Assembly: GCA_050273025.1 (NCBI GenBank)
Contig: CP158635.1
Coordinates: 19,034,001 to 19,098,000 of the forward strand
Length of the DNA: 64,000 nucleotides
Origin: Cenococcum geophilum
Lineage: Eukaryota
Direction: 5' to 3'
The notes beneath the pieces are model-generated. The model had not been told where the DNA came from. It searched no databases and saw only the letters and a list, made by a program, of their open reading frames with translations. Position 1 is the first letter of the stretch. The number at the start of each line of letters is the position of its first letter. The position numbers and the translations under genes are program-made. This document shows, in pieces, positions 1,126 through 52,068 of this stretch.

Positions 1126-2084
1126 TTTAAAAAATATAATGCTTTGTAATTAAGGCTATATTATTAAAATATATATACTTTATAATCTAGTCCTAATATT
1201 TCAATTTTATAGAAGAAAAGTATACTAGATTTAAGGGTTATTATATTAAATAAAGTAGTAGAAAAATAAGTTATATATTATATTATTTATATTTTAATAC
1301 CAACTTAATTATATAGTGGCTTATATAACTATTAAAGATTAACAATTAAGCTTTATTACTAAACAATTTAGCTCTAGACAAGAATATAGTAATAAATTAC
1401 TTAAATATAATATAATAAAGTATTTTGCTCTAGCAGAACTACACTAAGTAAAGGTGCTTTTATTTAAAGACTGTAAGGAATTTAACCAATTAATTTAGAG
1501 TAAATATTATCTCTATAACAAATGCCTATTTATAATTATTTAGTAATAATATAAAAGTTTTCATTTTAAAGCCATTTAATATAGTGACTAAGTTTATATA
1601 TACGCTTAATATAACTCTAAATTAATTTATATTCTAGGTATATTTTAATTATATATTAACTTCCCTTTATGCTTTTTTATAAAGGTTATAGGATTTTAAT
1701 ATTTACTTTAGTTATACCCTATTAATTTATATACTTTCTATTACGTAAATAAAAATTTTATACAAAAATTTTATTTAAAATAGCTAATTACCTATATTTT
1801 GCTAAGGGGCTTAGCATTACTATTTTAATTAAAGATTTAGATTACAATTTTTTTTATAATTAGATATATAAGGGCATAAATCATTATAGGTCCTATTTAA
1901 GTGCCTAATTAGTAAGCAAGGCCCCCTATTTAGGAGTTAATTGCTATTTATACTAGTGTATAAATTATTATAGTAGTTTACCATTTAATTGATCGCTTAA
2001 AATTAACAAAGGGACACTATGTATAAGTATAGCTTCTCACGCAAACCTATAAGCACTGGATTTTAAATCTGTAATAGCTATTTA

Positions 2085-3102
2085 GTAGTAGTTCTTTAAT
2101 TAACGTCTAATACGGATCCTATCTAGGCCCACGCAGACTACTCCGTCATAGGGGGAAAACTTATAATTTATAGGAAGAAAACCCTGTAGTTGGGTTAGGG
2201 GAGGAAAAACCCTATAAGCCACCTTAGTAGGATAAAAAACCCTAATTTGCCATGTCCGTCCATAGCGGCGGCCCTACGGGCCTACGGCTATGTCCTGTCC
2301 TCCTTAGATGTTTAAACTCTTTAGGAACTACTGCTTTCTTCTCTAGCTTATCCTAGCTAGGGTTCACTACGTCCTAGCTAGGCCTTGCCGTTCGATTGCT
2401 GTATACTTATAGTTGTGTTCCGTATTTTAACCACCCCCTATATACTATCTCTTGTTAACTATTACTATATACGCTATGCCTCCCCCCCCCCTAAGGCCTA
2501 TTAAAGGCGTAAGGGGGATTTATCTATAAACCACTACTATACTAAAAGGCGAGCGGGATATATGTGCCTGAGTATCTTTTATACCTAGGCCCTAGTCACT
2601 AGGCCCTTACCAAGGGTTACTACTCCTTAAGAGGAGACAGGAAAACCGTACGGTGTTGTCTAGGCTGCTAGGTAGTATTTAATAGTTAATGGCGAGTGAC
2701 CGCATGCTCCGCGGGCGATCGCCCTGGGGGTTAGGAGGGGCCGTATATTTGCTCGTTACTCGTTTGTTCGCAATCGCTTGTTCGTTAATGTAAGAGGTCG
2801 TTGATGCTCTCTACTGGGGGTCAGGGGATGTTATCGAATGCCGCGCATCTATGTTGGATCGTATAGGTGCCTTAATAGGAGAATAGTGTTGCTGTTATCG
2901 TAAGGGGCACTCAGTGGTGGTTTTCGAGATCTCACTATCCCATGTAAAAACCTTTTACCACCGCCCATAATACCCATAACCACCACCACTAGGTCGTATC
3001 ACACGCTGTATGACGTCTCTGCGTTGGCTCTAAGTCTAAACTTCAAAGACTTAGGTTTGTAGCTATCACCACGTATAGGTGCAGAGTCCGTTTTCGACGG
3101 CC
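2085..3102 (-). mobile_element. Non-coding ~1.02-kb SINE-like retroposon, copy 1
   Basis: End-to-end reverse-complement homologue of 6883-7903. Flanked by TSD tgtaatagctattta (2070-2084) / tataatagctattta (3103-3117). Short TAC-repeat tail; no ORF. Confidence 0.88.
3017..3102 (-). ncRNA. Predicted HDV-like ribozyme at 5' end of retroposon copy 1 (P1 3' strand damaged by transitions)
   Basis: Minus strand: P1 GGCCGTC / GATAGCT (copy 2 has GACGGCT); P2 CTCTGC/GCAGAG; P3 ACC/GGT; L3 TATACGT; P4 CTAAGTCT/AGACTTAG; J4/2 CCAAC. Confidence 0.75.
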
Positions 3103-3797
3103 TATAATAGCTATTTATAAATTCTACTTAGTTTGGTCTATATTAATCAGCTAGTTATAGAGAAAATAGGTCGGTAAGCTAGAGAGTTAATTTTAGTAAG
3201 GCGACCGAGTTTCGGAGGTCCGAGTTTAACTATTTAAGGAGATATAGTCTATAACCCTTTTTTATAATTCCCTACGTTACTAATATATTACTTCTATATT
3301 TACCTTTAGGCTATTATATATAGTTAAGTAATTAATTAGGTAATTAAAGAGACTTATCTCTTAAGATTTAGTGTATTCCTATACTATATAATTGGCGTAG
3401 CTCTACTACCTAGTAAATAGGAAAGATACTTTATAATAGCATCTGTAGCTATTATACAATTATTAAAAACGTTTATAACGTTATTCTTTAATACCGTAGT
3501 ATCGTTTAGGTATAATTTAACCTATATACGTTAAATATTAACGTCTTAATTACCTTTCCCTGGCCGCGTAATTAGTTTTTATAAAAAAGTAATAGCTAGA
3601 TAGCTTATACGCATATTTCCTTTTTTTTAAAAAAAAATTGCGCTATTATAACGGAATTATATTAGTAAGATTGCAGCTATTTACTAAAAGGGTATTAGAT
3701 AGTAAAGTATAAAGACAACTTACTTATTAAGCTTAATCCTTTTTCTTAATACCTTACTTCCTATTATTAATCTTTACCTAATTTAGACATATCTCTA

Positions 3798-4760: not shown

Positions 4761-6882
4761 ATATTATTAAGATTTTTTTTTCTATTATTAATTTAATATA
4801 CCTCTTTATTTTCTTACTAACTGCTCTTTTAAGCTAATTTCTTAGCGTATTTTAGCCCTACTGTAACGGCTTATATAAATGCCTCTAAACCAAAGCTAGT
4901 AAAATGCTATCTTATAAAGGTACTAAGCTAAGGAGAAGGAAAGGGGGTCGTTAGGGCTGGTGTAAATAAACAAGCAGCACAAGCCGCCAAGGCGCTAGCA
5001 GTAGGCGAGCTAATAGTAGAAAATAGTACTAGATAGTATGCGATAATATAAGATAGTATAATAGGTGGCAGAATATAGCAGAACTTGAGCAGAATTTGGC
5101 AGATAACGCGCTCTAGCGCCGTTATATTACCCCCCCCCTTTCTAAAAAAGCCTGCCTTTAGGCGTTATTTAAGCTCCCTATTATTCTTTAAATTGTTATA
5201 GTTATCTAACCCTTCTTTCTAGCACTTAATCTAGTTATTTAATTTATATGGTGGTTTAGGGAGGTTAGGGTAGGCTATATAAAAGTCCTGTAGCTTATAG
5301 GGAGAGTACTTAAAATTAGATATGGGGTACCATTCTAAGTCTTTATTGTGGCCTACCTAGCTTATATAATATTTTAAGACATTATGGTCCTTTTTAACTA
5401 CTAGGACTTCTTTAACTTCCTATTTCTTATTCTCTATAATCTAGATTAGCGGTAGGGGGTTATTATACTACCTAGGTAGTAGATTATTTATAGCCTTTTA
5501 TAGTTAGTCCGGGGAGAAAACGGGGTAAATCCTTATTAACTTTAGTAGCTTAACCTTAAAAGAGTATTTTACCCTTTAAAGAATCTTATATAGGCTAGCT
5601 ATTTAGTAGTTTAGCTTATAGCTTAGCCTCTAGGTTTTCTAGTTCTTTATTAACACCTATACTTTATCTCCTACTTAAAAGTCTACCTTATAATAATATC
5701 GGTTTATATTAGACTCCTTTTTCTTTTACGCCTTTTTTATAATTGCTTAAGCAGTCTCCTAGGCTCCGTATATTCTCTTAGCAAATACCTAGGCCTCTTT
5801 ATAGCTAAGGCGTTCGCGGGCTGTAGTGGGTTTAGTAGGCCTATCCTAATTAAAGGACGTTTATAGTGCATACCTATAGAGCAGTTTAAATGGCGATATT
5901 CTTATACTATTATAGAGGAGTATAAGCTGCGCGTAGTCTATTATAGGTAGTAGTTCCAACTAGTTATCCTAATAGTAGTCTATAAAGGGACGTGGTTGCT
6001 AGTTAAGGTACTAGTTTATAATCTTGGTTTAGCTATTGGTTTAAGGATAGAATATAGTAAAAAGCTTAATCTTAATCCTAAGGATACGGTAGAATTTGTT
6101 TTAGAAATCTAATATAAACTAGGGACTATAGAATTAATAGATGTTATTAATATAGAGGTAGGCTATATCCTTCGCCATTATAGTCTTAAAATAAGGGAGG
6201 GAGATAAATTACTTATATAGTCAGTTAATTACAATAAAGGCCGCATTATGGCCGTAGGCGTCCTTTAGAAACGACTTAAAGTCCATTATAATATATTGCT
6301 AAGGGCGTTTTAGAACTAGCAGCGGTTATAACTACCTAGGAGTTTAATCCCTAGGGGCATCTACGCGTCTATAGGCGTGGCAGTTTCTAATAAAATCGAT
6401 CTATATCTAATAAAAGTCCTCGCTAATAGTAATGGGGTATTAGTAGTTAGTAGGTCTTATCTTAACTAGGGTATACTATAGAGACTTAATAGTGGGCTTT
6501 ACGGATTAGCTCTATTTATAAGTTGTTAACATCTAGAACTATAAGCTATTCTTAGTATAAAAGTAGTCCTTCTATTTCTAAATTGGGGTTACCTTTTATA
6601 GCTTAGTCGCGGAGGGCCTTTAGAGAGTTGGCTATGCGGTTTATAGTTAGGATATAATTAATTAGCCCTATTAGTTTATTTAAGACTTCTTCTATAGATG
6701 CCAAATTATTCTATTTAGAGTCTAGCTCCTTAAGAATCTGCGAGTTAAGCTATTTAGGGTAAAAGAGGGCGCGCGTCCGGTATTAGGCTTTTAGCTTACC
6801 CTAAGGTCCTATATCTTATTCCCTTTAGGTTAATATATTAGCCTTAAAGTTTTACTTACTAGAATAATATATAATTATAAAA

Positions 6883-6967
6883 GGCCGTCGAAATCGGACT
6901 CTGCACCTATACGTGGTGACGGCTACGAACCTGGTCTTTGAAGTTCAGATCTAAAGCCAATGTAGAG
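6883..6967 (+). ncRNA. Predicted HDV-like ribozyme at 5' end of retroposon copy 2
   Basis: P1 GGCCGTC (6883-6889) / GACGGCT (6918-6924) with G1.U wobble; P2 CTCTGC (6899-6904) / GTAGAG (6962-6967); P3 ACC/GGT; 7-nt L3 TATACGT; P4 hairpin; J4/2 CCAAT. Confidence 0.8.
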
Positions 6968-7903
6968 ACGTCGCATAGCGTGCGGACAGGACCTAGTGGT
7001 GGTTATGGGCGTTAAGGGCGGTGGTGAAAATTTTTTGGATGGTGAGATCTTGAAAACCACTACTGTTAGCCCTCTATAATACGACGACTACTACACTATT
7101 CTATCTAGGGCACCTGTACGATCTAATATGGATGAGCGGTTTTCGATAACATCCCCAAAAAACCCCAATAGAAAGCATTGATGACCTTATATCAATGAAT
7201 AGACAAGCGCGAACGAACGAACGAACGAGTAAATATACGGCCCCTCCTAACCCCTAGGGCAATCGCCCGCGGAGCATGCGGTCACTTACTGTACTACCGT
7301 AATACTACTAAAAGGCAGCTGGATAACCCCGTACGGTTTTCCTTGTCTCCTCTTGACGGAGTGGTGCCCTTAGAGAGGGCCTAGTGACTAGGGCCTAGGC
7401 ATAAAAGATACCCAGATATATATACACACACATCCCGCTTTCGTCTTTCGGTATTAGGATGGTAGAACGGATGAATCCCCCTTACGCCTTCGATAGGCCT
7501 TAGGGGGGGGGAAGGCAAGGCGTATTAGCAATGGTTAATAAGAGATAGTATATAGGGGGTGGTTAAGATATGGGACATAACTACAAGCGTACGGCAATTA
7601 ATTAGCAAGGCCTAGCTAGGACGTAGTGAACCCTAGCTTTAGATAAGCTAGAGAAGGAAGCAGTGGTTCCCAAGGAGTTCAAAACATCTAAGGAGGAGGA
7701 CGTAGCTGTAGGCCTGCAGGGCCGCACTACGTGCAAATATGGCAATTTGGGGTTTTTCATCCGACTGAGGTGGCTTATAGGGTTTTTCCTTCCCCTAACT
7801 ACAGGGTTTTCTTCATGTAAACTATAAGTTTTCCCCCTATGACGGAGTAGTCTGCGTAGGCCTAGATAGGATCCGTATCAGACGTTAATTAAAGAGTTAC
7901 TAC
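6883..7903 (+). mobile_element. Non-coding ~1.02-kb SINE-like retroposon, copy 2, inserted in pol of element A
   Basis: TSD tatataattataaaa (6868-6882, 7904-7918). Removing it rejoins element A's RNase H-end reading frame. Ends ...atcagacgttaattaaagagttactac. Confidence 0.9.
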
Positions 7904-8674
7904 TATATAATTATAAAAAAGAATTAGGAGAGTATTTTAGCCTAGTAAGCTTATTATTTAGTAAGCTGCTTTATAGTTATAAAGTACTTTAGGGCTTTAT
8001 AATCTATATATACCTTAATCCGAAAGTTTGTACCTTTAAGCTCTATATACTATTAAAATAGCGATTAAATAATAGCTAGTATTTCTTTATTATATACCTT
8101 ATAGTTACACTTAGCTAGATCTATTATTTAAAAAAAAAAGGCAATAGGGTACTATTCGCCGTCTAGATATAACTATAATAGAATTCCCGATATAACTCTA
8201 TTAAAAGCGTCCGTTTTTAGCATTAACTTAAGGTCTAAGTTATAGTAATAAAGAATTAGAGAGAAGATAAGCCGATCTTATAACTCTTTAAAGGCTTCTA
8301 TATAGTTATTATTAAAGATAAAAGGCGTATCTTTCCGGGTAAGTTATATAAGAGGCCTTACTATAACTTTATAGTTATGGATAAACTAGTAATAGAAATT
8401 ATAAAACCTAAGAAAGGATTAAATCCCTTTTACTATATAAGGGAGCTTCTAGTTATAGATTACCTTTACCTTCTTAGGGTTAACTTTAATTCCTTCTATA
8501 GTTATAATAAACTTAAGGTACTTTATACGTTTTACCCTAAACTTATATTTCTTAATATTAACTTATAAGCCTATATTCTATAGTCTCTCTAGGACCTTCT
8601 TAATATAAACTTAATATTTAAGTTTATTATCTAAGTATATAAGAATGTTATCTAAGTATACTATACAGAATTTA

Positions 8675-33619: not shown

Positions 33620-36351
33620 TTCTACTAGTATTAAGTTATTACCTATTTGGCGGCGCTTTCTACTTGACATTATAGAGGCGAATAGGGTAGATATATTTTT
33701 TATTAATTATAGAGCTGGTTCCGCCGATTAGTTTGACAGTATTTCTGAGACAAGAGCTGTTATGGGGTAGAGATTAATTTTGTTAAAGAAAATAACTGTG
33801 GGATGATGATCAATCTGCCCCCGAAATTCGTGCAGAGGAAAGGCCACGCATCCAGGGGGCCAGGCGCGCGTGGATGGCGAGGAACCGCGCGTCTTCCCTA
33901 GGAACTCGCCAAGTCACGTGATGATATCTGGAAAGGCTCACTAGCAGCCGCATTTTTTGTGCAGGTAAACATCGTAGTCCCCGCACTCCCGCCCCCATAG
34001 TGAGACCCCGCTAAGCAGAGCACTGTTGCACTAGATGCTCGCCATTTTGCCTGTCGTAGCTAGATCCCACCCTTTGTGCTGGAAGCTTGACCCCTCCGTT
34101 TGCAATGTCCTCTCGATTGGCTTGCAACTAGGCAGCTGCCTAACTATCCTCATCGTGGCTGTGAGGGAGAACGCTTGGCCGGCCGGCCGCCGAACCCGCA
34201 ACACTTTTTCCGTCTGCTCCAAAGTCAGCAACCGGAGCGGTTCTCAGCCTTCAACTACCTACATTAAACCAGCGCGAGAGAGCAGAACAGCTAAAGTCCC
34301 GGAACCCGATCCCAGCCTGCACTTCATCACCAATCACAAGGATGGTTTACTATTGCGCGACTTGATTGTCCGGGCGGCGGCGTTCAATGGCTGTGGGAAG
34401 CTGCCCATGGACCGCTGGCTATCAGATGGTGCTAATCCGGAGCCCGAACACGTCATAGAGGCAGGGTTCCTCGGGCATCAACAAACGACGCTGGTCTAAC
34501 TAAACTTCTGTAGACCTGAAGCATGGCGCTGACTGTTACTGAACAGCTTTCGTACCACTGATGATATTCGATTAATTTTTGACCGGAGTCCAGGATTGGG
34601 GGAGCGGTGAAGATGGTGAGGGAGCAGGTTGTTGTGGCGCTGCACATTGGTGGTTCGGATATTATGCAAGGCTTGTGGCCTTCTCGCGGCATGGAAACGG
34701 CATGGAAACGGCATTAGCGTTACGAAAACTTGTCTTGAAAGCATCTGCAGGTGTTGTTTCCAATTGGGAATTTAGACGACGGGAAGATATGGAAAGTGCA
34801 CGGAATTGAAGAACCCTCGATCACTACATTGATAATTGATAATTGATCATCGATCATTGATATCATCAATACCGTAACCCATCTCAGCACCCGGCGCGTT
34901 GACCAATCCAGCTTCGGACATACCTACGTCTCCCAACCTTGTATTCTTTTCGATAGCATGGACTACAATCACAATGGCATACGCGCTACTGCAAATCGAA
35001 TTCTTCGTGCCTCTAGTGGTGCGCCTAATGCTCTACATCCCGCCCAGCGCCGGGTTTCCGGCATTTGATACAAGCCTAGCTGTTGAATTGAAAGCACAAG
35101 GCGATGTCGCGCTTCTAGGATCGTATGGGAGGAAGAAATTTTCACGAGTGGTGGCATGGAGCTGTTTCAACGTGTTACTGTCAGTCGCATTGCAAGCCGG
35201 GATTGAGTGGCCAGTCATAGATGTGCTGAAGCTGCGGAGCATACTGGTGATCAAAGGCAGCGTTTGGAGCTTCAACCATCTCCTGAATCCATGGACCATG
35301 GCTAAGAGCATTGCCGAAGGATTAATCCTTCAAAACGCGAGTGTCGGCAATTAGAATCTACTGATGTGTACTGATCTGGATTTACTTTTCGGTTTCTCCA
35401 ATATTACATCTGCCTCTACCTCCTCCACCGCCTTAGCTCCACCTACCTCACCCGCTGGCATTTGGCCTGGCAACACAGCATCCGGGCCCCCTACTCCTTC
35501 GTCGCGAACTACAACTACCCAATATGTTTTCTTCTGCACCACTTCCTTCCTCTCTACCTCCCAGCCTACCTCTTCCGATTCCATATAATGACATACCTCA
35601 TCCTGCTCGCAATCTTCTAACTCGAAGAGATGTTTACATACTCGGGCTACAATGTGCTACCATCCACTATCATGCTGCGAGGTATGGCGCGAAGAACCGA
35701 TGTGCATATGATGAGCGTTGGGAAAGGGAACTATGCGCCAATTAGCGTGCTAGACTAGTGCCACGGGACAACGTTGGACGCGGACGTTATGGACGATGTT
35801 AGGGATGAAATGGAGAAGCATGATGTGCAGGAGAGGGCAGGAAAAGCGATGGATGATATGGGAACGGGGCAAAAAAGTGAGAGCAAGGAAGGGCGGGGAA
35901 AGAAATGAATGTTAGAGGGGGGCGAGTAAGTGATTAGATTCTAGTGGAATGTTCTTATGCATTGATAATTGATTTGGTGTTTCCTGAAATGATACTCCTC
36001 AATATTATCAACTCAATTTCGGAACACCGCGTCACATGCGCTTAGGATGTGGTGCAGTTAAAGTAAGGCCCGCTAATCACCGTTAGTACTCCGAAGATTT
36101 TACTCTTCTAATACGTTAACATTATTTTGATGTTGCTGTAAATTCATGAGACCAAGTCTATGCCATCTGCCCTATGACGCGTTTTCGGGTGGTGGTTGAA
36201 TTTGCTTGCTTGATACAAAATCGTATAGAAATGCAAACCGAGCCCTCCATGGAAATTTGCCGTGCCAGTACTAAAACTCTGCTTTTACGGCCGCAGCATG
36301 CCGATGACACTCTTCAGCCCCTGCAATAAACGCCCAACCTCAATGATCCAT

Positions 36352-37189
36352 TCAGAAAACCATCATGTGCGGCCTGTCAGCCTTGCGCAGGCTGAAGGAC
36401 GAGCTCAGGTAAGGAAGTAGCATGGGTTCCTTCTTGATGTTGGCCAACAGAGCCTTGTCGACGGACTTCTGGTCCTCCACACGGCTGCTCGCGATCTCCT
36501 TCTTCTGTCGAACCAATCAGTAACCAATATCCAGACGTTTCCTCTCGAAGAGGGCTGGCAACTGACCTCTGGCTTCTCGCCCTGCTTGAAGAAAGCCTCC
36601 TCTCCCGTCTTCTTGCTCTTCTTGTCCTTGGTGAAGTAGCCATCCTCGCTAACCTTCTCCAAAACCTTTTCATCCACACCCTTCAAATCCACAGTGGTCG
36701 AGGTTGCAATGACATATCGAGCATTGACCCTCCGTAGAGGAACGCCGTTGACTTTGAAGGGGCCGGTGACGAGGAGCACACCCTGGGGAAGGTGCTTAAG
36801 GAGGATAACGCGCTTGCCGCGGAAGCGACCAGCCAGGAGGATCAGAACGGAACCAGGTTGCAGTGACGGACGGGGCTTCGCTGGTCGGAGAGATTTGCGG
36901 GCCTAGATAAGTAGTAAATGTCAGTGTCTTGCGTCACGAAATTGCTTCAGACTGGAAGTCGAGATGAGAGAACTCCTGCGCTTAATTGCAGAACTGACAA
37001 CGCCAATTCCGGCCAGCACTTCCTCTAGTCTCTATGCGCTCTCCCCCTTCACTAGGTTAATCGTACCTTCTTGGGCGCGCTCTCGTCCTCAGCGGGATAA
37101 TACTTGTTGGCCTTCTGGGAGTGGTGAGGTATCGACCGCTCGCCCTTGCCGAACGACTTGGTTACCGGCTGTTCCTGCTTCGCCGACAT
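36352..37189 (-). CDS. RPL6: 60S ribosomal protein L6 (eL6); exons 37189-37067, 36902-36567, 36504-36352
   Basis: [24 protein letters not shown]...[27 protein letters not shown] and C-terminal [23 protein letters not shown] introns. Confidence 0.97.
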
Positions 37190-37436
37190 GTCGAATTGTG
37201 ATGCAGGAAGAATCCGTGGGAGTTGGGTGGGAGGCTTAGTTAGTAGTCGCTTGGTCGTCGAAGTCTGTGGTCTTTTTCGAAATCTCGTGTGTGGATATTC
37301 GGATTAACTAGCGTGCCGAGTATTCAAGCGCCAAGAATCATCAAAGCTCCCGTGGCTGTCAACTCCTCTATCCAGTTCCACTATCTCACCTTTTCACAAC
37401 TAAACGAATACCGCTGTCTATATTCTATAAGCCAAC

Positions 37437-39004
37437 ATGTCGATACAGCCTCTCATCACATTTAAGGCAGGTAAATGTGAGCTTGAGGTTTGTTACTGGA
37501 TCATCTATCCCGATTTACTCGATTTACTGATCTATCGTAGCCCGGCAACCCATCAAAAGTCAAAGCTGTTCCCACGCCTGGTTACATCTACCTTTATAAT
37601 GATGGTATTATGGCATCTCCAAGTTGCACTGTATTAATCTCACAAGTTTACAGAGCTTGTTCACTTCTGCTGGCGGCCACGGTCCGCTCCCGCATCCGAC
37701 CCCGAGCTTGACCTTCTCATGATTCCCGGGGATGGAAGCTTTCTCCCATACACAGGTCCCGATGGTGGATCAGACTCAGATGATCTAAAATCCCCCACAA
37801 ACGGTCGCATTTTCGTCCTAAAGTTCTCTTCAAGCTCCCAGCGACATCTTTTCTGGCTGCAGTCCAAGACTCAACACCCCCAAGGCAATCCAAGCTGGTT
37901 CAGCGAGCGGGACCAGAAGTTAGGACAGATAGTGGATATGCTATTGAGTGGCGAAGAGGTAGATGTTGCGTATGAGCTCCGGGATATCAGAAATCGCCGC
38001 GGGTCTGGCCGACCTGATGACGATGATGAAACAATGGAGGATGTAGAAGGTACTGATCATGCCCCAGATCGCCACCGACAAGGTAGTGGTGGGGCTGGTC
38101 CAGGTGCCACAGGCGGGGACATAAGAGAAGAAGGCGAGGAATCTAGGGAAGGTGGTGCTGATGGTGGCCGAGCGTAGGTTATCATTTTCAACGTCGCAAC
38201 GCTGCCGGTTTATCTGTGAAAGTGAGGGAGGCGCTAGAAAATGGTCAAAATCGGTGAGGCGTTATGGGTTCACCAACACTGCATAAGGTCATCAAACTTG
38301 GCCTGAGTGATTCAGCAAGGCAGATATGTAACTGTAAACACATCAAATAACGATTGGGTTTAGCCTTCTCCAGCGACACGACGTCTGATCTATATCTGCT
38401 GGCACCCGCTCAATTACAGACGAAAATATGCTAACTTGTTTTTAGTGCTTTCGCAGGTACGACAGATGCTGCGGCAATTGTACAAAATTTCCTCAACTCA
38501 TTGAAAAGCGGGAGCCTCTCCGGCAGCGCTCAACAACAGGGCAAACCATTCACGACACTACCAGATCTACTTCCATCGTCAACTACTATCCCAGTCATTG
38601 AAGCCGCGAACTCGACCTTCATCGACGCATTACTCTCTCACTTACCACCAACACTTCTCCTTCTCGCACAAGAAATCGACGAGCTTTCCGAAGTCGACCC
38701 TGATTCCGAAACCGCACAGGCTGCTATTCAAGCCTTAAGTACGGACCAGAAAAAGGACATCCTCAAACGAGTTCTCCGCTCTCCGCAACTACACCAGAGT
38801 CTTGGCAGCTTGACTGTTGCTTTACGGGATGGCGGGCTGCCAACCGTTAGCGAGGCGCTAGAGATCAAAGTTGAAAATGGTGGATACACACGAAATGGCG
38901 GAATGCCACTTGGGGCGGGCGAAGCAGTGGAGGCCTTTTTAGAAGGTGTCAAAAAGACTGTTCAGGAAGACAAATCAGGAGACAGCAGGATGGACATCGG
39001 CTAG
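37437..39004 (+). CDS. RPN13: Proteasome ubiquitin receptor Rpn13/ADRM1; exons 37437-37487, 37541-37604, 37654-38173, 38446-39004
   Basis: PLITFKAGKC...PGYIYLY...LVHFCWRPR...NGRIFVLKFSSSSQRHLFWLQ (Pru domain) and C-terminal LRSPQLHQSLGSLTVAL. Splice sites keep frame. Confidence 0.92.
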
Positions 39005-39517
39005 AGCGCTTTCCTGCTGTTGAGTGATGTATGAGAAACACATGCCGGCTAGAATTGATGCATGAACAATAAAAAGAATCAAAACTATAGAGGCTAGCTT
39101 CAGACGCCACTGGATATTGCTTAACTCATATCACTTGAGGCTTGCATATTTCCTAGAGTCCAAATATTCGAAATTTCGCTTAGGCCAAAAGCAACCAGTA
39201 CGAGGAGGCACTCCCAAGAGCATATGACCTAGAATCTTGGGGATGCATTTCTTAGCTGGCTTTAAACGTATTATGCATAGGATTTGCAGCAGAATAGACA
39301 TGCAGTATACACTGCTTGGATTCGTCCTGAAAGTATCTCAAGTCAACCATCGCCGTTTTGCTAACACTTCCATCTAAGAGCTCTAATACCCAATGCGCCC
39401 TAAAGCCTTTACCTGTCACTTCACCTCTCTAGCTTATCCTCAAGGAGTCCTTACATCACACTTGACTATTATTCCCAATATTGCCGTTAGTCTCAGTTGC
39501 CCCCCTCTCCGCGTCAG

Positions 39518-39870
39518 TCATTTAAGTGAAAGCAAACCCGGGAAGCCTTTTTTTTTTAGGTCTCTGCACCCATTACTTCAAAGCAACCCTTGCAGCGCAT
39601 TCAAAGAGCTCTTGCACTCCAACATTAGTCTTCATCGAGGTTTCAAAGTTTACCATGGCGCCGATTCGTTTAGAAAACGCTTCGCCTTATTACACTCTAA
39701 TGATTGCATCGGTTTTGTATTTGAAGTAGACTCAGATCATGAATTCTCCTTGATTGCTTTTTTGTTGAACTTTGATAGCTCTGTTATTTGTTCCTACCCA
39801 TAGCGAAGCTCGCTCTCGCAGCCCACCAGAATCTTAGGGACTTAGCCGCAGTAAAGTAATTAACTTCGTC
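39518..39870 (-). pseudogene. Rho-family small GTPase pseudogene fragment (C-terminal half)
   Basis: Minus strand: VPKILVGCESELRYG*EQITELSKFNKKAI ... *GEAFSKRIGAMVNFETSMKTNVGVQELFECAARVALK*, resembling the Rho G4/G5 region. Contains in-frame stops. Confidence 0.7.
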
Positions 39871-40838
39871 TGTTCACTTTCAATACTATTAGCTCTGAAA
39901 TCACATGTCTACTCTGAGCGGGTCTCTCTAGCATCCAGTTACCACGGCGGCGGCATCGCGGAATTGCTTCAGCTGCATCCCTATCTTTTTCAAGGCGGCG
40001 TCAAAGAAGTGTCAAGAAATGGGAGTCCGGTGGGTGGAGCGTAGAATTTGCCTTGGATCAAACTGAGCGGAGACGGTTTCTCTTTTGGTTCACGCTTGAA
40101 GGAAGCAGTGTTAGCTTGTGAATCAACGAGACTCTTTCTAGCACCCGTGGAGGTTTTTGAAGCTCTCCGCTATGCGTTAACACCCAAGGGTGAGCAATTT
40201 CCCAGCACACAATGCCACGTAATTAAAGTTTCCGTTAGGATGAATTACTAGCATGAAAAGATGCCTCAGAGCTTGGGCTAGAGATACTGAATCAAAGCAT
40301 TGTTGATCGTAGAACCATGCATTCAGAAAGAAATGCCTGGACGCTATGAGCTATATTTCTATTGCATCTTAGTGCTAGGGGATTTACCTATCTAAACATG
40401 GGAGAGGTTGCAATATCGAGATCAAGCGTTAAGAGGATGAAGGTAAAAAACCATTTGAGTGTTTGAAGCTGCCAATGAATCGGTGTTAGAGATTTCGATG
40501 AGATCCACTGCCGGCCCAATCTCATTGGCTAGAATCCTCCGTTATATGCTTCTTTGACCAAATCGCAGTAATAAGAATGGGTGAACAGGCAAAAGTATAG
40601 CGGAATAGATAAGATGGTTGCACATTATCAGCATTGAATGGTTTCTTTTCCACAGTCTTCGGGCTAAACCGCTTCGGGCTCCTCGACGCCAAGTGCAACA
40701 TCCAACCTCATTCCAACGGACCTCCCCTCCACCATCAACTATCTATTTCGACCCAGGATTCCGCGACTCTACCCAAAAGGGGTTTGTCAACACTCTCTAC
40801 TCCACTTCCCTTTTCTCCCCTACCTACCGTTACCGCCA

Positions 40839-41383
40839 ATGCCTCTTCTACACCCTAGCCGCTGCGCCCAGCGCGTCACCGCCTCCTTCCCATCCCGTAC
40901 GTCCGCATCGACATCTCTTGCGTTCCGCCGGTCAATTTCGTCATCGCGATCGTTACGCTCGGCTTCAGGCTCGCACGAAGATCATTATGATCCCCCATCC
41001 GGATGGCTATGGGGCGTGCCGCCAGGCCAGAAATACCAGAAGGAGGGTTGGGAAAACATTTGGTTCTGGGGTTTCTGTGGAAGCTTAGGGCTTGGAGTTA
41101 TTGCATATGCTTATAAGCCAGACACAAGGTATGTCTAAATCTACTTCCCAGAAGGACATCGATTGGACAAGGCGAGCTACGATGCGGTCACAGCTAGTAT
41201 AATGTTAATAGGATCCTTTGCGGAGGCATTGCGTAGTCATTAAGAAAATTCAATCAGGCTGATAAAGCAAATAGCATACAAACATGGGCTCTTGAAGAAG
41301 CTCGAAGGCGATTGGAAGCCGAGGGAATACTTACGGATCCAGGGTTGACGAAGGGTGAAGTGAAGGCACAGAACACTGAGTAG
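40839..41383 (+). CDS. NDUFB11: NADH:ubiquinone oxidoreductase ESSS subunit (NDUFB11 homologue); exons 40839-41128, 41275-41383
   Basis: R/S-rich mitochondrial presequence, then YDPPSGWLWGVPPGQKYQKEGWE, a TM helix, and YKPDTSIQTWALEEARRRLE. Confidence 0.9.
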
Positions 41384-41977
41384 GTCCGAGTGGTCAACGA
41401 GCGACTGAATTCAGCGGATTGAAATTAGGAAATCCATTCTTGACCACCTTGGTCATTGTCCTTTACCAATGGTCATTTTGGACGAGGAATGGGCGGATTC
41501 ATTGTACATATAGTGGAGCGGACAAGCAAGATTTCCTTTGTACCTGATCATAGAGCGTGGATGGCAGTTCCGTCATCCATATTAAGCAATACCATCACTT
41601 TGCTTGTTGCTTCTTTCCACTCCCATTACATCATTGCGCATCTCCTAAGCCCTGAGCTCCATACGGTTTCGAGTTGCCTGTTCAGATATTGGTCAGTCTT
41701 ATATTCCTTAGTCTATATCGAAATTTACCTGTTTTGGTGGCGGTACATGTCCAGCTCCTCTCGAAATGCTTCAATCTACCAAGGAACCCGCGAAAATGAT
41801 AATTGCGCGAGTTAGGGTTCCACACAGCACATAGCGCGACAACTAACGTTAATGCGGTTCATGGAAGCCGATTCAGCGCCAGACCCGCTTCAGTCATTCA
41901 TGTATATTCGGCAACTGTCATCTCCAGACTCGCATGCTCGATCATGCAAAGCTGATTTAATGGGGAGTTGACTTACC

Positions 41978-42792
41978 GGCTTGGAAATTTCCGCTGAAGA
42001 GCGTTGGAACGTTCCCACCAAGGCTGCCTTCGGCTTTGGCAATGTCTTTACCCTCAATCCAGTCCATCCAAGCATTAACATGGTAGTGGTCGTACACAAT
42101 GTTATCTTCGACAGTTGGTCCGGCGGAGGTGATTTCGGGGAAGTAACCCTCAGAAAGACCTTTACCGATTGGGCCTCATCAAATCATATGCCGGGTGCTT
42201 GTCGGTGTATGCAGTCTTGTACCCAGCGCCCACTACTACTTCAAAGGCGGTATTGACGCCGGTACGCATGTGCGGATAGATGTTTGTACACTGGCCATTA
42301 ATGATAGCTTGAGATAGATTTGCCGGGTTGATCCCGCCAGAGAAGAGCTCCGTGCTATTGTAATCGATACTCTCGTCGTATACAACTGTGAAAGGCATTA
42401 GAGATTGGTTGGCCAAGCTACTAGCTCCATATACCTTCGGCGCCAGGAGCTCCTTCGCATCCGCTGCTGGGAGCATAGAAGGTCCTGTCATAAGTGTCGT
42501 CGTACCAGACTCCAGTAGTGTGGGGATTGGCACCAGTATATTGCGCTAGAGACCCCGGATATGAGTCTGAAGGGCCAGTAGTCTAGGCATCAGTGTACCT
42601 ATATCCGGTCTTCAGCAATGCAGATATGTTAGAAGGTCCGCGAGCGAGCCACTTGTCCGGATCGCTGTTGTGCAGCCCATCCACGCTGAAAACAACTACA
42701 TATTTGGATTTGCAGCCTTCGTCGTCATCGCGCCGAGTGGCGACCTGGTTGGTGAGTGCAAGGGAGAAAAGAATGGAATTGAAGCCCCGCAT
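41978..42792 (-). pseudogene. Secreted type I phosphodiesterase / nucleotide pyrophosphatase (alkaline phosphatase superfamily) pseudogene
   Basis: Signal peptide, VVVFSVDGLH, in-frame TAG (42583-42585), TTGPSDSYPG...TGVWYDDTYDR, an intron, TAYTDKHPAYD, a frameshift near 42170, then GKGLSEGYFPEI...VPTLFSGNFQA. Remainder not found. Confidence 0.8.
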
Positions 42793-43694
42793 GGTGCTAA
42801 TTGTATCAAGCAAGCGATGTCTAGGTGTAACTATAGTTGTGTTTTACAACTATGTCCTAAAGCACCCTTCATATACACACCGGCTGTCATAGCTCCCAAG
42901 CTTTCTCAAGCTGTTCCCGGCCCATGGTCCAGGCACAAGGAACCGGTGACGTTCTACATATCTCGTTACCTGCCTTCTTAAGGTACTTAATTAAAGCCTA
43001 GAAGAATTGGCCAACAGGAGTAGCCGAGTTTGACATTGCTGCCCCACGATTGCATACTGATGGCTAGCTTGTTTCCCCATCTCGTTCTTCCTGGTTTATA
43101 GTATCCCTGCACAGTACGCTCCCTAGCGCCCCGTGCAGTTTTAAGGCGCACATAAAACGCAGTGTCCTAATAATAAAATTTTAACCCATCCTAGAGATCT
43201 TCAAGGGTTGATAAACAATCCTGTCCTTATCCACTAAACGACCTGGAAAATGCTTTAGCATATCCACATTTCCGCACGGAAAACTTTTCCTGAATATCTT
43301 TTGGGCACTCTTCCTTTGCACTTAGCCATCCTCGACGTCGCCACTGATGCGGCTTCTCTAGGCTCACCTCTTGTATTTTCTTTCGCATGAGTATCTGATA
43401 AAAGCACCAGCGAGCTGTCTGGGGACATAGTGTAGAATCAGAAGACCAGGTTGAAGATCCGCGGAGGAATCCGCGGGTTTCCGTGGTCTGGGTTTAAGTT
43501 ATGTCAGAACCCTGACTCGCAAGTATGCCTGATTATTCGCGGTTTGTGACGATTAATACTGAACAACATCAACTTCGCCTACGAAATGATTTTCCATCAC
43601 ACCAAACACGAAAAGATTCCTACGCCCAAGATCCAAAGTTGGCCGTGGTCTAACTATTACTCAACTCAGTGCCTTAAGCTGAACCACCAGGTGC

Positions 43695-45901
43695 ATGATG
43701 GCGGAGTCCGACATCGGTAGTTCTTTCATTCCCTCACTTTACAAACCTTCTTCGCTATTGCCTATAGCTCGTCATCGTGATACCATGCTCTATGTAATTG
43801 AGACATTCCCGATCACCATTATTACTGGCCAAACAGGCAGTGGCAAAACAACCCAAATCCCTCAGTTTCTAGACCAAGCAGGGTGGTGTGCCGAGGGAAA
43901 AACAATTGCGATTACGCAGGTAGGTCAGTCAAGACTGTCATTCCAGCTGTCTGGGGAGCAATATGGTTGGTCTAACTTGATATTAGCCACGCAGAGTGGC
44001 TGCTACGACGGTGGCAGCAAGAGTTGCGGAAGAGATGAGATGTAATTTAGGCCAAGAGGTCAAGTCTCATCACAAACTCATCACTGCAACAAGCATTTTG
44101 ACTTTGCATAGGTTGGCTATTCTATCAGATTTGAGGACATGACATCTTCAGCAACACGTATAAAATTCTTGACCGATGGTCTACTTCTCAGGGAGGCGCT
44201 GGTTGACCCTCTACTGTCACGGTACTCGGTAATCATGGTTGACGAAGCCCATGAACGTTCATTGAGCTCCGACATCCTACTAGGCTTACTCAAGAAGATA
44301 ATGAAGAGACGTCCCGAACTACGGATTGTTGTGAGCAGCGCCACTTTGGATGCTGAAAATTTCCTACAATTCTTTGCTGGCGACTCCATCGTAGAGAATG
44401 GGAATGGGAGTGGTGAACTTGGAGGAAGTGTTGGCCGAATCATCAGCCTTGAGGGTAGGATGTATCCTGTCGATATCCACTATCTGGAAGAGCCAGCAGA
44501 GGACTATGTGGAGAGAGCTATCAAGACTGTGTTTGATATTCACGCTAAGGAAGCCGAAGGGGATATACTGATCTTCCTCACTGGCCGGGAAGAGATTGAC
44601 GCTACAATTGAAATAATAGCAGATCGCATAGGCTCTTTAAACCCTAAGGGTCCATCGCTTCTCCCGCTACCTTTATACGCTGGGCTCTCCACGGACGAGC
44701 AAATGTATGTCTTTGAACCAGCACCAGAAGATACACGCAAGGTCATTATCGCTACTAACATAGCCGAGGCTTCCGTCACAATAGATGGGATAGTCTATGT
44801 CATCGACTGCGGCTTCGTCAAGCTCCGCGCTTACAACCCTACCACTGGCATTGAGACCTTGACTGCAGTTCCAGTCTCCAAAGCCTCTGCCACTCAACGC
44901 GCTGGCCGTGCAGGGCGTACCAACCCTGGAAAATGCTACCGGTTATACACAGAGCAAAATTATGCTAACCTTGAAGAATCTACCGTTCCTGAAATTCAGC
45001 GATCAAACCTCGCCCCTGTGATTCTCCAGCTCAAGGCCTTAGGTATCGACAACATAGCTCGCTTCGACTATCTCACCCCTCCCCCAGCTGAACTTGTCAT
45101 TCGGGCACTTGAACTCCTTTACTCTCTCGGCGCACTTGACAACTACGCGAAGCTTACCCAACCTCTCGGCACGCGGATGGCCGAACTAGCGGTTGAACCA
45201 ATGATGGGCAAGGTGCTACTTTCTGCAGCAACCTTTGACTGTCTCAGCGAAATATTATCCATTGCAGCGATGACCAGTCTTCAGGGTGCGGTATGGTTCT
45301 CCCATGAAGGCGAGAAAAAAGCGCAAGAGTCTGCTCGCAGGAAATTCGCAGCAGAAGAGGGCGATCATCTGACGCTGCTGAACGTATATCAAGCATTCGT
45401 CACTAAGGGTAAGAAGGAGGCGAAGTGGTGCCGGGACAATTACTTGAACTTCAGGTCGATGTCGAGGTCGGTGAGTATCAGAAATCAGCTGAAGAGATAT
45501 TTAGAGCGCTTTGGCAATAATGTGGATGAAAGCCTCGGGCGAGATTCGGCTGTCTTACGTGCTGGTGGTGTCGACAAGGCGGAAAAGATTCGAAGATGTC
45601 TGACGTCGGGATTTTTCGCGCACGCAGCCAGGATGCAGCCGGATGGAAGTTTTAGGACTGTCGATGGAGGTACGGTGTTGTATGCTCATCCAAGCTCATT
45701 GCTATTTGTAAGTTTCTAGGGTCGCGATAAGATTTCTGTGTTCAACATTAATGAATATTATAGAATAGAAAAGCAGATTGGGTTATCTTCCACGAAATTA
45801 TGGAAACAGGAAATAAGACATTCATCAGGGACATTACCAAGATTGAGAAGGCATGGCTAACTGAATATGCACCAGAGTACTACCAAGTAACACAGAAGTA
45901 A
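43695..45901 (+). CDS. DHX35: DEAH-box RNA helicase, DHX35-like; exons 43695-43919, 43987-44058, 44112-45707, 45764-45901
   Basis: GQTGSGKTTQ, TQPRRVAA, DEAH, SAT, TNIAEAS and QRAGRAGR motifs; very short N-terminus as in DHX35. Confidence 0.9.
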
Positions 45902-45997
45902 CAATACTATTCAACCGCCACAAGAATCGCTTTGAATTTCAGTGAAATGCAAACATAAAATTGAAACCTAACCTCGTGTCAACCGCCCAAGAACCAA

Positions 45998-46847
45998 TCA
46001 CTTCAATGCCTCCACAAAGAGTTCCCTCATTCCCTTAAGGAAACCTGCCAGGTCTCGTGTCTCATTTAGCCTATCCAGTACCCTCTCTACCTCCTCTCTC
46101 TCCACCTTAGGGCGAAATTCGCCTACTCTGTATTCCCTCTCACTTGTATCAAGCTCGAACCATGCTTCCCAGTCCCACTCTCTCTCGCTCACATTCGTAT
46201 AAATAAACTTCAGTCGATCCTGCTGACCTACCCCTTCAATCCTCAAACTTAAGTAACTTTCCCAGAAGTCCAATTCCGGTTCATTGTACCTGGCCTGTCC
46301 GTCGAGGTAGCGGCGGTGCTTAAGCTGCGCTTCGCGGCGCGCAGAGACAGCCTTCTGCACTTCAGATATTTGTGCCTTGAGAGCATCGCGGTTGGAGAGG
46401 CGTTCATCGCGTTGTGAGGTAAGGGCTGCGATTGCGGAGTGCATTTCTGCAGTTTCTGCGGACTCTTTGGCCAGTGTTTGCGCATGCGTAGTAGATTTAA
46501 GAGTTAGGATTTCTATATTACGCTTCTTCATGCGCTGGTCCTCTGTCAAAATGTGTCAATGATTTATTGTTATCACCTGATCCTCCGAATAGGAACCTAT
46601 TAGCAGATATATGCGCACCTTGCAGTTCAGCCACGTTCATCCTAAACTGGTTGCGCTCTTCTAGGACGCGCTTGCGCCCTTTTTCAATGAAGTCATCAAA
46701 TCGCGCGGTGAAGCGTGCCATGCGATCGCGAAGGTCCTCGAAACCGAAGTTAATGCTGGGAAGGGTATCGGCCATTGAGGGCACGTCGGCGGAGAGGGGT
46801 GGACGCATCGCGCTGGTTGACAGTGAGGGTTCGAACATTGTGGCCAT
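45998..46847 (-). CDS. SPC25: Kinetochore Ndc80-complex subunit Spc25; exons 46847-46619, 46542-45998
   Basis: LPSINFGFEDLRDRMARFT, a coiled coil, then NEPELDFWESYLSLRIEG...LKFIYT...RDLAGFLKGMRELF (RWD-like). Confidence 0.88.
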
Positions 46848-47188
46848 GATGGTAAATAGTGCGGAGTGGTTTGAGACAGGTTTTCTGTGGCGACTGCAAT
46901 GAGAACCGTTGATCTCGATGTCGTGTGAATTGGTGTTCTGCGGAGGAGCGATTCAGGATCCAGACTTGTTGTTGACATTTCGGTTGTCAGGAGTATCAAT
47001 ATCGGAGCTTGCTGCGAAAAGCCGACGGTCACGTGAATGTTTATCAAGATTTCGCCTAGAGATTTCAAACTTCCATACTTTCACGCTCCCAATTCTGGAA
47101 TACGCTGGACTTACATATTGGTTGGATCTTCTCATTATGCTTTGTAACTTGTCTATTATTGTACAAAAAACCCTTGAATTGAAACCGA

Positions 47189-50100: not shown

Positions 50101-50396
50101 GCCTATCTACTTCACGGCGTGCGAGGCTACAGAGGCGTGCGGAACGCCACCTTAAGCGACAGCGGCGCGAGACTGCTGCTGCTGCCGCTGCGGCATCTGC
50201 ATCTCAGCCACTGCTAGCGACAGAGTTAGCTCAATTTAGGAGCTCACCTGGGCCAGCGATACCGGGAGCTGGAAGCAGTCAATCGGGGGTGGGAAGTTCG
50301 CAGATGGTAATAGCGAGCCAGTTAGAAAGAGGCGCATTTGGAGGGAGACCAGTAGCCAAGAAGGCCAAGAAGACTAAAATGCCTGGCTTCAGATAA
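47189..50396 (+). CDS. RRN6: RNA polymerase I core-factor subunit Rrn6-like; exons 47189-48509, 48562-49306, 49355-50396
   Basis: N-terminal LGHFGEAVY, beta-propeller motifs (TGGVPHADVAFNPWYQRQVAFVDQEGAWSVWDI), and C-terminal SQ.ERGAFGGR...KK..MPGF typical of Pezizomycotina Rrn6-like proteins. Confidence 0.8.
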
Positions 50397-50863
50397 CATA
50401 GGTTAGGCCTTACTTTACAAACTCGTTAAACAAACATTTTCTTAGGTAGCCGCTCTTGTATCTAGTCTGAATAATTTAGAGATATCACATGCAACATCAT
50501 AGCGCAAATTCCTTCAACCAGCCAGCTTTAAACAGTGAGCTCAACTGATAACTAGCGCTTACCAGCATTCAGTAAGCATACTTAATTTAGCTCCTATCGA
50601 AAAAGGCCGTAATACCCAGTCAATAATGACTTTCTTAGCGCCGAATTCATCTTTCGATAATTAAGGCGGGTCGAAGTGGGGCCTTGACACGTTTCTGCGG
50701 GGTAGGTTTCCACATCCTTCGCGCTGCAGACGTTGAAAAAACTAAATATATATAGGCCATCACCAACATTCTAACTGTAGATAGGGATTATTTCGCGCCA
50801 CTCGTAGCTCTACAGTTGGGATTAATAAATTTTCTGAATTTAACTTTTGTTCCTGCAGCCACA

Positions 50864-52068
50864 ATGTCTGACTTCCCGTCCCTACAACCGGCTATGACGG
50901 TTAGGGTATGCATTATCGATATGGCGTTTTAGAGGGCGCGCAGGCTGATTAAGGTTTTAAACAGGTGGTGGCTGATTCCCCTATGCAAATTGGTACGGCC
51001 TGGCTATTGCAGTCCTTCAAATTGATTCAGTCAGGCATCAGGATGTGAGCTGATATGAAGGTTGTAAAGGCGGAGCAACCGGCACACCATTGGCCATTGT
51101 CGTAAGTTTTCTCATCTGTAGTTTTGCTTTATCTCTTATTTCTTTACTACCTAATCTTCTTTGATATCATTTCTACGTAGGAATTTTCGGAGTAATGGCA
51201 TGAACGCAATCAATAGAATAACGAACAGCTTCCGAGAACAAAAAGGAAATTTCTCGTATGTTGTTAGCTGACGTTAGAATTTTCATTTAGCCCATGACCA
51301 GCGGTACCATCAAGACCGAGCCAGGATTCGCGCCAGCACTGGATGCCGAACTGTGAGTATCATCGTCGACATTGGGAGCCCTATAGCGCTAAAGGAAGGT
51401 AGACATGGCGTTGGCTACGATTATATACACAATGACTCTAGCGGCGAGAACATGAGATTGGATGTTCGAGCGCAGGTCAAGTAAGTAAACCATTATACTC
51501 GTTACTTAGCTTCAACCTTCCCCGGAAGGATTTTTGGGCACTCGCCGCAAAAATTCCAAGAACTCACTAAATTTCCCCAGGAACAATGACGGCACCGTAA
51601 GCCTAATTCGCTTCGCAATCTTTTAAGGCACTTGCTCAGATACCCCCCAGCTGCTCGCCATGTACTATAAGGGTACCGTTGCCCTGACCGACGGCGTCAA
51701 AGCCCTTCTCACTGGCGACCCTAACGCTGGAACCACACCTTATGGGGATTCCTGTGAGTTGAGAAACCCAGCAAGTTGGGATTCTACTATTGGAAAAGCA
51801 TTCGACTAACCTTGATACTAATTTTCAGTCACAACTTTCAACTTCGAGGTCAGCCTTATTCCCTTCACTACGCTCTAGCAGCAAGGAAGTGGAGTAAAAG
51901 TGGGACGAGCCTGCTATTGATACGAAAATTAATATATGCTAGACCGGTAATCCTGCTTACAAAGCCCTCGAGAACGGCACCTACGTTTCTGCAGGCCATT
52001 TCATCAAGGAGCCGGGACAGGAGGGAATTATCGTTGAGTACAAGGTGAGCAAAGTTATCAAGGGATGA
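50864..52068 (+). CDS. DUF3237/UPF0311-like protein, 168 aa, 9 exons (50864-50905, 50965-50992, 51070-51101, 51291-51352, 51403-51480, 51581-51596, 51651-51753, 51829-51848, 51943-52068)
   Basis: Not in the ORF track. Spliced product MSDFPSLQPAMTVR...GYDYIHND...MRLDVRAQVKNNDGTLLAMYYKG...FNFETGNPAYKALENGTYVSAGHF...VEYKVSKV. All introns GT-AG and frame-consistent. Confidence 0.85.

Follow-up and report, generated by a model that had tools for sequence, protein, structure and literature searches.

A SINE-like fungal retroposon family probably headed by an HDV-like self-cleaving ribozyme

The DNA analysed here is a stretch of 64,000 nucleotides from Cenococcum geophilum (contig CP158635.1, positions 19,034,001 to 19,098,000; hereafter the window), which holds two copies of a non-coding retroposon of about 1 kb. 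We consider it likely that this element is a non-autonomous retroposon without long terminal repeats (non-LTR), from a filamentous fungus affected by repeat-induced point mutation (RIP), similar to short interspersed elements (SINEs), headed by a ribozyme and mobilised by a long interspersed element (LINE). To the same degree we favour, from the fold and the 5′ ends of the copies, the view that its head functions, or functioned in the master copies, as a ribozyme of the hepatitis delta virus (HDV) type that sets the 5′ end of the element.

Results

The first nucleotide of the element opens an HDV-like fold

The two window copies align end to end with 80.2% identity across 1048 columns, and each ends in TACTAC and is enclosed by a 15-bp target-site duplication (TSD; Table 1). 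This agrees with the original prediction, made from the letters of the window, of two diverged full-length copies with their own TSDs and a TAC-type tail. Compared with the family majority, 81 of 970 positions differ in copy 1 and 121 of 965 in copy 2; 44 and 66 of these differences, respectively, are C>T or G>A, which fits RIP-like decay. The window copies are old and RIP-damaged, and their ribozymes have probably lost activity.

Further members of the family were gathered from metagenome contigs by the first 37 nucleotides of the element, the search pattern being opened to transitions. At least 124 further loci carry the head, and 130 matches were listed, of which 126 are unique. All family counts given below are among the matches listed, in loci L001-L124, which were chosen by their heads.

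In the least-mutated copies, nucleotides 1-85/86 comprise helix P1 (GGCCGTC/GACGGCT), a J1/2 joining segment of 9 nt, P2 (CTCTGC/GCAGAG), P3 (ACC/GGT), the loop L3 (TGTACGT), a P1.1 formed by the GU of L3 with the AC right after P1, and a J4/2 segment reading CCAAC. All 8 representative copies have a unique parse as a nested double pseudoknot in the order P1-J1/2-P2-P3-L3-P3′-P1′-P1.1-P4-J4/2-P2′. This parse has a 7-bp P1, a 6-bp P2, a 3-bp P3, a 7-nt L3 of the form U-N-N-A-C-G-U, a 2-bp P1.1 and a C-C-A-A in J4/2. In HDV itself, the hallmarks of L3 are its first U and the C-G near the loop end (U20/C24/G25 in HDV numbering).

The alignment of family heads (A1; 118 distinct rows) shows how well this architecture is maintained. 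Pairing is kept in 95.2% of 2989 cells, against 28-41% when the partners are slid. The pair at +1 is G1.U in 106/118 rows and A-U in 11/118. As for P1.1, pair 28-46 is U-A in 117/118 rows, with 1 gap, while pair 27-47 is G-C in 73/118 rows, A-U in 6, G-U in 1 and unpaired in 37. The CCAA of J4/2 lies at nt 75-78 or 76-79, and C75, A77 and A78, all outside the part constrained by the search pattern, are each at least 90% conserved.

P4 is an ordinary helix whose length varies naturally among copies: the stems are closed by loops of 4-9 nt, and the shortened forms still pair. Its versions include GGG/CCC, GGG/CUC (with a wobble), GAG/CUC and AAG/CUU, and in alignment A1 the P4 pair 56-74 is divided among GC (50), GU (25) and AU (25).

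Several claims of the original prediction can be judged against these data. It placed G1 of an HDV-order fold on nucleotide 1, and P1, P2, P3, L3, P4 and the C-N-A-A of J4/2 were all found there. It also proposed that reverting TAT to TGT in L3 would complete P1.1; TGT is indeed the family majority, as the G-C counts at pair 27-47 reflect. Conservation of the P1-P4 pairing across the family, on which the prediction depended, is borne out by the kept cells of alignment A1 and extends to a second lineage described below. Finally, each window copy was said to repair the damage of the other. The damage is complementary, but the copies had been swapped: it is copy 1 that has an intact P1 and copy 2 that has a perfect P2 and P4. 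Both retain only 1/2 P1.1 pairs.

The fold is rare in the surrounding DNA

A strict HDV descriptor, written from general HDV rules, passes at nucleotide 1 in 53/125 family copies, and in 66/125 when one P1.1 pair suffices. In 792,576 nt of flanking DNA it passes at 24 starts, or about 3e-5 per position; 23 of these remain once a copy of the second ribozyme lineage is excluded. A covariance model built from the family (R1) matches only copies 1 and 2 in the window, with 115 bits for copy 1 and 118.3 bits for copy 2, the next best score being 8.9 bits. With the P1.1 requirement relaxed, the descriptor also matches at 3112, which we rejected as a false register in which the TSD pairs with the mutated P1 strand.

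It could be argued that the fit is a product of chance or ascertainment in a GC-rich stretch of an ordinary retroposon, since a loose descriptor matches three unrelated places on the minus strand of the window as well as the 23 flank places. We regard this as extremely improbable. Against a background of about 3e-5, the match falls on an independently defined first base in two unrelated-looking versions of the fold, and the L3 reversion was predicted beforehand and confirmed blind.

A second lineage shares the architecture but not the helices

The family model and the descriptor both flagged a GC-rich, type-2 HDV-like ribozyme in locus L028, and a partner 91% identical to it was found in L076. 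The family-1 model finds the two copies at E = 0.0013 and 0.0076. Both start at G1, and their flanks diverge immediately upstream. Contig ends cut them off at 154 and 122 nt, and neither the loci nor the window contain any further match to them. The element headed by the type-2 ribozyme breaks contigs, a behaviour common among long repeats.

The type-2 helices are P1 GCCCGCG/CGCGGGT, P2 CTGCAC/GTGCAG and P3 GCG/CGC, again with a G.U at +1. L3 reads TCTACGT or TCCACGT, J4/2 reads CTAA or CCAA, and P1.1 is formed by CT or CC with GG, the CC/GG form being that of HDV itself.

We compared the lineages in a MAFFT alignment of five family-1 and two type-2 copies. In P2, P3 and P1.1, 11/11 pairs are kept in all 7 rows, and 7 of them are changed on both sides. 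P1 is off by one column in this alignment; an explicit parse gives 3/7 P1 pairs changed on both sides. In total, both sides differ between family 1 and type 2 in 10/18 pairs of the same architecture. Among the sequence comparisons made here, these cross-lineage compensatory changes are the strongest structural evidence for the fold.

Copies start at G1 and are flanked by target-site duplications

If the fold sets the 5′ end, no copy should extend upstream of GGCCGTC and TSDs should be the rule, as the original prediction implied. In 126/126 unique copies, unrelated upstream DNA reaches as far as G1. At positions -20 to -1 the majority base makes up a fraction of 0.34-0.60, versus 0.91-0.99 at +38 to +44, the latter lying outside the search pattern. 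A BLAST search with copy 1 gave 144 high-scoring segment pairs, 135 of which start within the first 25 nt; 60 are single full-length alignments with a mean identity of 82.8%.

An exact TSD of 9-16 bp abuts G1 in 48/59 matches that have at least 1300 nt downstream. In 3 of these 48 the second repeat lies 1392-2654 nt downstream: two are spurious repeats and one belongs to a copy with a 1.66-kb insertion. The unique full-length copies (n = 45) measure 988-1139 nt, with a median of 1011, and their TSDs are flush with G1 without extra bases. The TSD is 13-15 bp long in 36/45 of them and starts with TA, likewise, in 36/45.

Tails are (TAC)n, or (TAT)n after mutation. Two of the 92 tail matches in the loci lack a headed body, one being a LINE end and the other the remainder of an interrupted copy. 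No clear 5′-truncated copies were seen in the loci, which were selected by head. The insertions lie in varied AT-rich flanks. L001-L124 show a weak target-site signal at bases -15 to -12, with T/A over-represented (0.5-0.6) some 13-15 nt ahead of G1. Together with the TA-starting TSDs, this enrichment suggests from the flanking sequence that the endonuclease may nick in a T-rich/TA context.

In the interrupted copy, at L073:4364-7037 on the minus strand, the insert of 1.66 kb separates nt 121 from nt 127, shortly after the ribozyme.

The 3′ end is shared with a LINE

The original prediction supposed that the element borrows the reverse transcriptase (RT) of a LINE, and a candidate partner was found: a LINE of about 5.5 kb with an RVT_1 domain and a common 3′ module and tail. 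The last 45-63 nt of the two elements are 78-86% identical, and a collinear block of 29 nt lies upstream. Aligned (A4), the shared module reads GGAGTAGTC.GCGT.GGCC...GGATCC..ATC.GACGTTAA...(TAY)n in both. The LINE has TSDs of 13 and 14 bp and a (TAT)n tail, and one SINE subfamily ends like it, in GACGTTAAGCAATGAAT(TAT)n.

RVT_1 was detected in the L068 copy (E = 9.3e-11; 42.3 bits against a cutoff of 29.6, with stops read as X). The L007 piece carries a tail-like match behind a frame that in translation reads ...PRCKCG..(7 residues)..H....C.., that is, C-x-C...H-x4-C, which we take to be the C-terminal zinc-knuckle pattern typical of the second open reading frame (ORF2) of non-LTR elements. 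Pfam gave zero matches on this C-terminus, and RVT_1 was seen in the L068 copy only. The loci contain no fewer than 11 near-full matches to the 1-kb L007 piece, and truncated LINE copies occur elsewhere. All LINE copies are heavily RIP-degraded.

Putative stem arms lie in the shared module (window 7850-7886), GTCTG...CAGAC in the SINE and GTCCG...CGGAC in the LINE. It is possible, as far as the sequences tell, that this double change from U-A to C-G lies in a stem recognised by the RT. A 45-nt stretch at window 52273-52317 on the plus strand, at the edge of the gene-rich island, is 78% like the SINE/LINE 3′ module; it has no tail or TSD, and no RT-like ORF upstream.

The element might instead have arisen simply by internal deletion (as a SIDE) from an autonomous LINE that has escaped notice, carries the same head and moves it. 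R2 SIDEs and NARTc are reported to share heads with their own LINEs (PMC3414825, PMC3185411). Moreover, a related type-2 ribozyme heads the contig-breaking element, and the match to the LINE that we found is limited to the last 60-100 nt or so. Yet among the 130 listed head matches in 784 kb, none continues into anything other than the body of about 1 kb. The close match of the LINE module and tail to the SINE, the subfamily with the LINE-type ending and the agreement in TSD length further argue against such a derivative, which we consider unlikely.

Does the fold or a promoter set the 5′ end?

The LINE copies compared (n = 7) start within 1-2 nt of one another at (N)GGAGCTCTTGC, the first base being variable. 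No P1+P3 core was found within -25 to +15 of the LINE start in any of the 7 copies.

This is one of several observations that weigh against a working ribozyme in the SINE. The LINE 5′ ends are equally sharp without one, so precise ends do not need a ribozyme. The strict descriptor is failed by 72/125 family copies and by both window copies, the latter because of RIP-type damage. Rfam yields a single match to the element, RF02682, whose 16.4 bits fall far below the gathering score of 44, although it spans exactly 6883-6967 and so starts at the TSD-defined first base; a scan of five intact copies at E up to 10 returned zero matches to HDV models. The pseudoknot-free minimum free energy fold of an intact head is no better than that of shuffled sequences (z = 0.83). 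Conservation within the first 37 nt is partly built in by the search pattern. Double changes within family 1 are RIP-type transitions, G to A in one arm and C to T in the other; since both can co-occur without selection, we did not count within-family covariation as proof. The cross-lineage covariation, for its part, rests on two lineages, the second known from two contig-cut copies.

According to Li and Breaker 2017 (PMC5640933), most HDV-like ribozymes were discovered by structure descriptors and not by sequence models.

The sharp LINE ends and the low Rfam scores would also suit an internal promoter in the first 80 nt or so that sets the 5′ end, as Pr77 does in L1Tc, the HDV-like fold being non-catalytic, for instance protein-binding or stabilising. 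Against this account, all hallmarks of the catalytic core (the G.U at +1, the U...CG of L3, P1.1 and C-N-A-A) stand in register with nucleotide 1, and the second lineage retains them although nearly all of its helix sequence differs. The junctions differ too: extra bases between TSD and start are found in 0/45 SINE copies, as opposed to 7 and 20 bases in the complete LINE copies (2/2). The absence of extra bases at the SINE junction fits an uncapped, cleaved end. A promoter in place of a ribozyme thus seems to us quite improbable. Nor are the two functions exclusive, as Pr77, the head of trypanosomatid ingi-clade elements, is described as serving as both (PMC3185411).

The element has neither a Pol III head nor coding capacity

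The original prediction that the element lacks an RNA polymerase III (Pol III) head held up. ARAGORN found 0 tRNA genes, Rfam at gathering score gave 0 families and no rRNA in the window, and canonical A or B boxes were present in 0/45 full-length copies. Both window copies contain internal T4-T5 runs, which would stop Pol III. At about 1 kb and with such runs, the retroposon is unsuited to this polymerase.

Open frames in the majority consensus reach at most 96 codons, and the longest ATG-initiated ORF among the 45 full-length copies is 144 aa (median 51). In a few little-mutated copies, such as L075:7003-7485 (+) and L068:6607-7035 (-), a frame beginning at nt 3 stays open across the ribozyme and spans 143-161 codons, which recalls R2 and RTE, whose ORF runs up to the ribozyme. 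We rejected a coding role for this frame: the majority consensus lacks it, Pfam matched neither of two natural ORFs, and it is probably a chance occurrence in GC-rich DNA. Nine ORFs of at least 300 aa occur in the 124 loci; they are host genes or lack a Pfam match, and none is an RT.

Window context

The window is fungal. A gene island of normal GC content (34000-52000; 47-50% GC), with genes for Rrn6, Spc25, Rpn13, RPL6e and a DEAH helicase, lies between AT-rich blocks at 1-34000 and 52000-64000 (28-40% GC). Strong purine skew marks the blocks at 10-16 kb and 58-64 kb, which look like RIP-degraded retroelements.

Table 1. Positions of the retroposon copies, their predicted ribozyme modules and related elements. 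Plain numbers are window positions; the prefix L denotes a family locus.
Feature	Position	Strand	Remarks
Retroposon copy 1 (~1 kb, non-coding)	6883..7903	+	full length, RIP-type damage
Retroposon copy 2 (~1 kb, non-coding)	2085..3102	-	full length, more RIP-type damage than copy 1
5′ TSD of copy 1	6868..6882		tatataattataaaa, 15 bp, perfect
3′ TSD of copy 1	7904..7918		tatataattataaaa
Upstream TSD of copy 2	3103..3117		taaatagctattata, 15 bp
Downstream TSD of copy 2	2070..2084		one C/T transition vs 3103..3117
Predicted HDV-like ribozyme module, copy 1	6883..6967	+	85 nt; predicted cleavage 5′ of G6883
P1, copy 1	6883-6889 / 6918-6924	+	GGCCGTC/GACGGCT, G.U at nt 1
J1/2, copy 1	6890-6898	+	9 nt
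P2, copy 1	6899-6904 / 6962-6967	+	CTCTGC/G(C/T)AGAG across the two copies
P3, copy 1	6905-6907 / 6915-6917	+	ACC/GGT
L3, copy 1	6908-6914	+	TATACGT
P1.1 partner AC, copy 1	6925-6926	+	1 of 2 P1.1 pairs left
P4 region, copy 1	6927-6956	+	one mismatch at P4 base
J4/2, copy 1	6957-6961	+	CCAAT; candidate catalytic C at 6957 (nt 75 of 85-nt form)
Predicted HDV-like ribozyme module, copy 2	3017..3102	-	86 nt
P1, copy 2	3102-3096 / 3067-3061	-	damaged, GATAGCT: one mismatch and one wobble
P2, copy 2	3086-3081 / 3022-3017	-	perfect
P3, copy 2	3080-3078 / 3070-3068	-	
L3, copy 2	3077-3071	-	
P4, copy 2		-	CTAAGTCT/AGACTTAG, intact
J4/2, copy 2	3027-3023	-	CCAAC
3′ module common to SINE and LINE	7844..7903	+	GGAGTAGTC...GACGTTAA..., TACTAC tail at 7898-7903
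LINE copy	L044:1075-6632	-	complete, ~5,556 nt
LINE copy	L050:2741 to ~9312	+	complete; SINE copy nested at 6431
LINE 3′ piece	L007:10783-11814	-	tail-like match behind frame with C-terminal motif
Type-2 HDV-like ribozyme	L028:5058-5142	+	GC-rich; flagged by family model and descriptor
Type-2 HDV-like ribozyme, partner	L076:38-122	-	91% identical to L028 copy

Discussion

A chimaeric element mobilised by a LINE

We infer that the retroposon is transcribed as part of longer RNAs. Within such a transcript, the fold of nt 1-85 would cleave 5′ of G1, the site to which both the fold and the 5′ ends of the copies point, and would thereby leave an element RNA that starts at G1 with a 5′-OH.

The last 60-100 nt or so and the (TAC)n tail would have been copied from the 3′ untranslated region of the 5.5-kb LINE. 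From the shared module and the like TSDs we infer that the LINE RT can recognise the SINE 3′ module. The RT and endonuclease of the LINE would then use target-primed reverse transcription to integrate the RNA at TA-rich sites, creating the 13-15-bp TSDs. Reverse transcription that reaches the cleaved 5′ end would provide every new copy with a complete ribozyme and no extra bases.

Because the LINE has no ribozyme, the head would have come from another lineage, one related to the type-2 ribozyme of L028 and L076. The element would thus be a chimaera of a ribozyme head and a LINE 3′ module from different lineages.

Relation to known systems

The literature describes close parallels. The R2/R1 hybrid SIDEs of Drosophila unite a ribozyme from R2 with the 3′ end of R1, and their TSDs are of the R1 type (PMC3414825). 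Like the fungal element, they are non-coding, combine a 5′ HDV-like ribozyme with a LINE 3′ end from a different lineage and are moved in trans (PMC3414825). R2 and hybrid SIDEs are, however, specific to an rDNA site, co-transcribed with 28S rRNA and rare (PMC3414825), whereas copies of the fungal family, each about 1 kb in length, are scattered over TA-rich sites in AT-rich DNA and occupy at least 124 loci of the contigs scanned. It does not qualify as an R2 SIDE, given the varied AT-rich insertion flanks, the lack of rRNA in the window and a partner LINE without the head.

NARTc shares its ribozyme-bearing Pr77 head with L1Tc and is reported to cleave at +1 (PMC3185411; PMC4035085). As in the NARTc/L1Tc pair, we are dealing with a dispersed non-autonomous retroposon; there, the first 77 nt or so form an HDV-like ribozyme that is thought to free the element from long co-transcripts. 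The difference lies in the partner LINE, whose 5′ ends lack the HDV core here in 7/7 copies.

More broadly, a review reports that R2, RTE, Baggins and L1Tc, as well as R2 SIDEs, carry HDV-like ribozymes at their 5′ ends, and mentions hundreds of ribozyme copies with conserved downstream and variable upstream sequence (PMC6765202). The same source presents RTE, Baggins and R2 as promoter-less non-LTR elements with read-through transcription and 5′ HDV-like processing, features that we propose for the fungal element as well. Those LINEs are mostly autonomous and metazoan (PMC6765202), while the retroposon described here is non-coding and fungal. It resembles canonical SINEs in being short and non-coding, in its TSDs and in the 3′ end that it has in common with a partner LINE; it departs from them in lacking A and B boxes as well as any head of the tRNA, 5S or 7SL kind.

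HDV-class ribozymes have been reported from fungi before. Li and Breaker (PMC5640933) list 230 HDV variants in 26 fungal species, in addition to 11 canonical ones found earlier. The variants occur in Pezizomycotina in many copies, and cleavage at the base of P1 was demonstrated for two of them (PMC5640933). In that paper they have 'widely variable gene associations' and no assigned role, and the string 'transpos' occurs 0 times. Typical variants cleave next to a C-G pair, contain an E-loop in P4 and have P2 and P3 separated by one additional nucleotide (PMC5640933). With its G.U at +1 and ordinary P4, the present family fits the general consensus and appears to differ from the fungal variants as described.

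The novelty that the original prediction had hoped for is therefore partial. We found no description of a ribozyme-headed retroposon in fungi in the literature, Repbase and Dfam lying outside the search; ribozyme-headed retroposons have been described in Drosophila and trypanosomatids, and HDV-class ribozymes in fungi. What is new here is a fungal, dispersed and probably chimaeric, ribozyme-headed retroposon, the principle being already known from R2 SIDEs, hybrid SIDEs and NARTc/L1Tc.

Implications

If the proposed reading is right, fungal HDV-class ribozymes would gain a concrete job, namely defining the 5′ end of a promoter-less retroposon. The family would also offer a clean natural case of modular assembly, for which most of the evidence has so far come from the hybrid SIDEs of Drosophila, which are rare and confined to rDNA. 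In practical terms, repeat annotators that seek Pol III heads will miss such families, and the 85-nt head is a short, assayable candidate ribozyme.

A more far-reaching idea, which we put forward as conceivable and somewhat short of an even bet, is that the head is a portable cassette that lets an element start anywhere. Taken from a type-2-related retroelement and joined to the 3′ module of a LINE that has a promoter but no ribozyme, it could have produced a promoter-free parasite with at least 124 copies. Hundreds of fungal HDV-class ribozymes, reported with variable gene associations and no biological role, may have the same explanation, and, if it is true, these would mainly be the 5′ ends of non-LTR retroposons.

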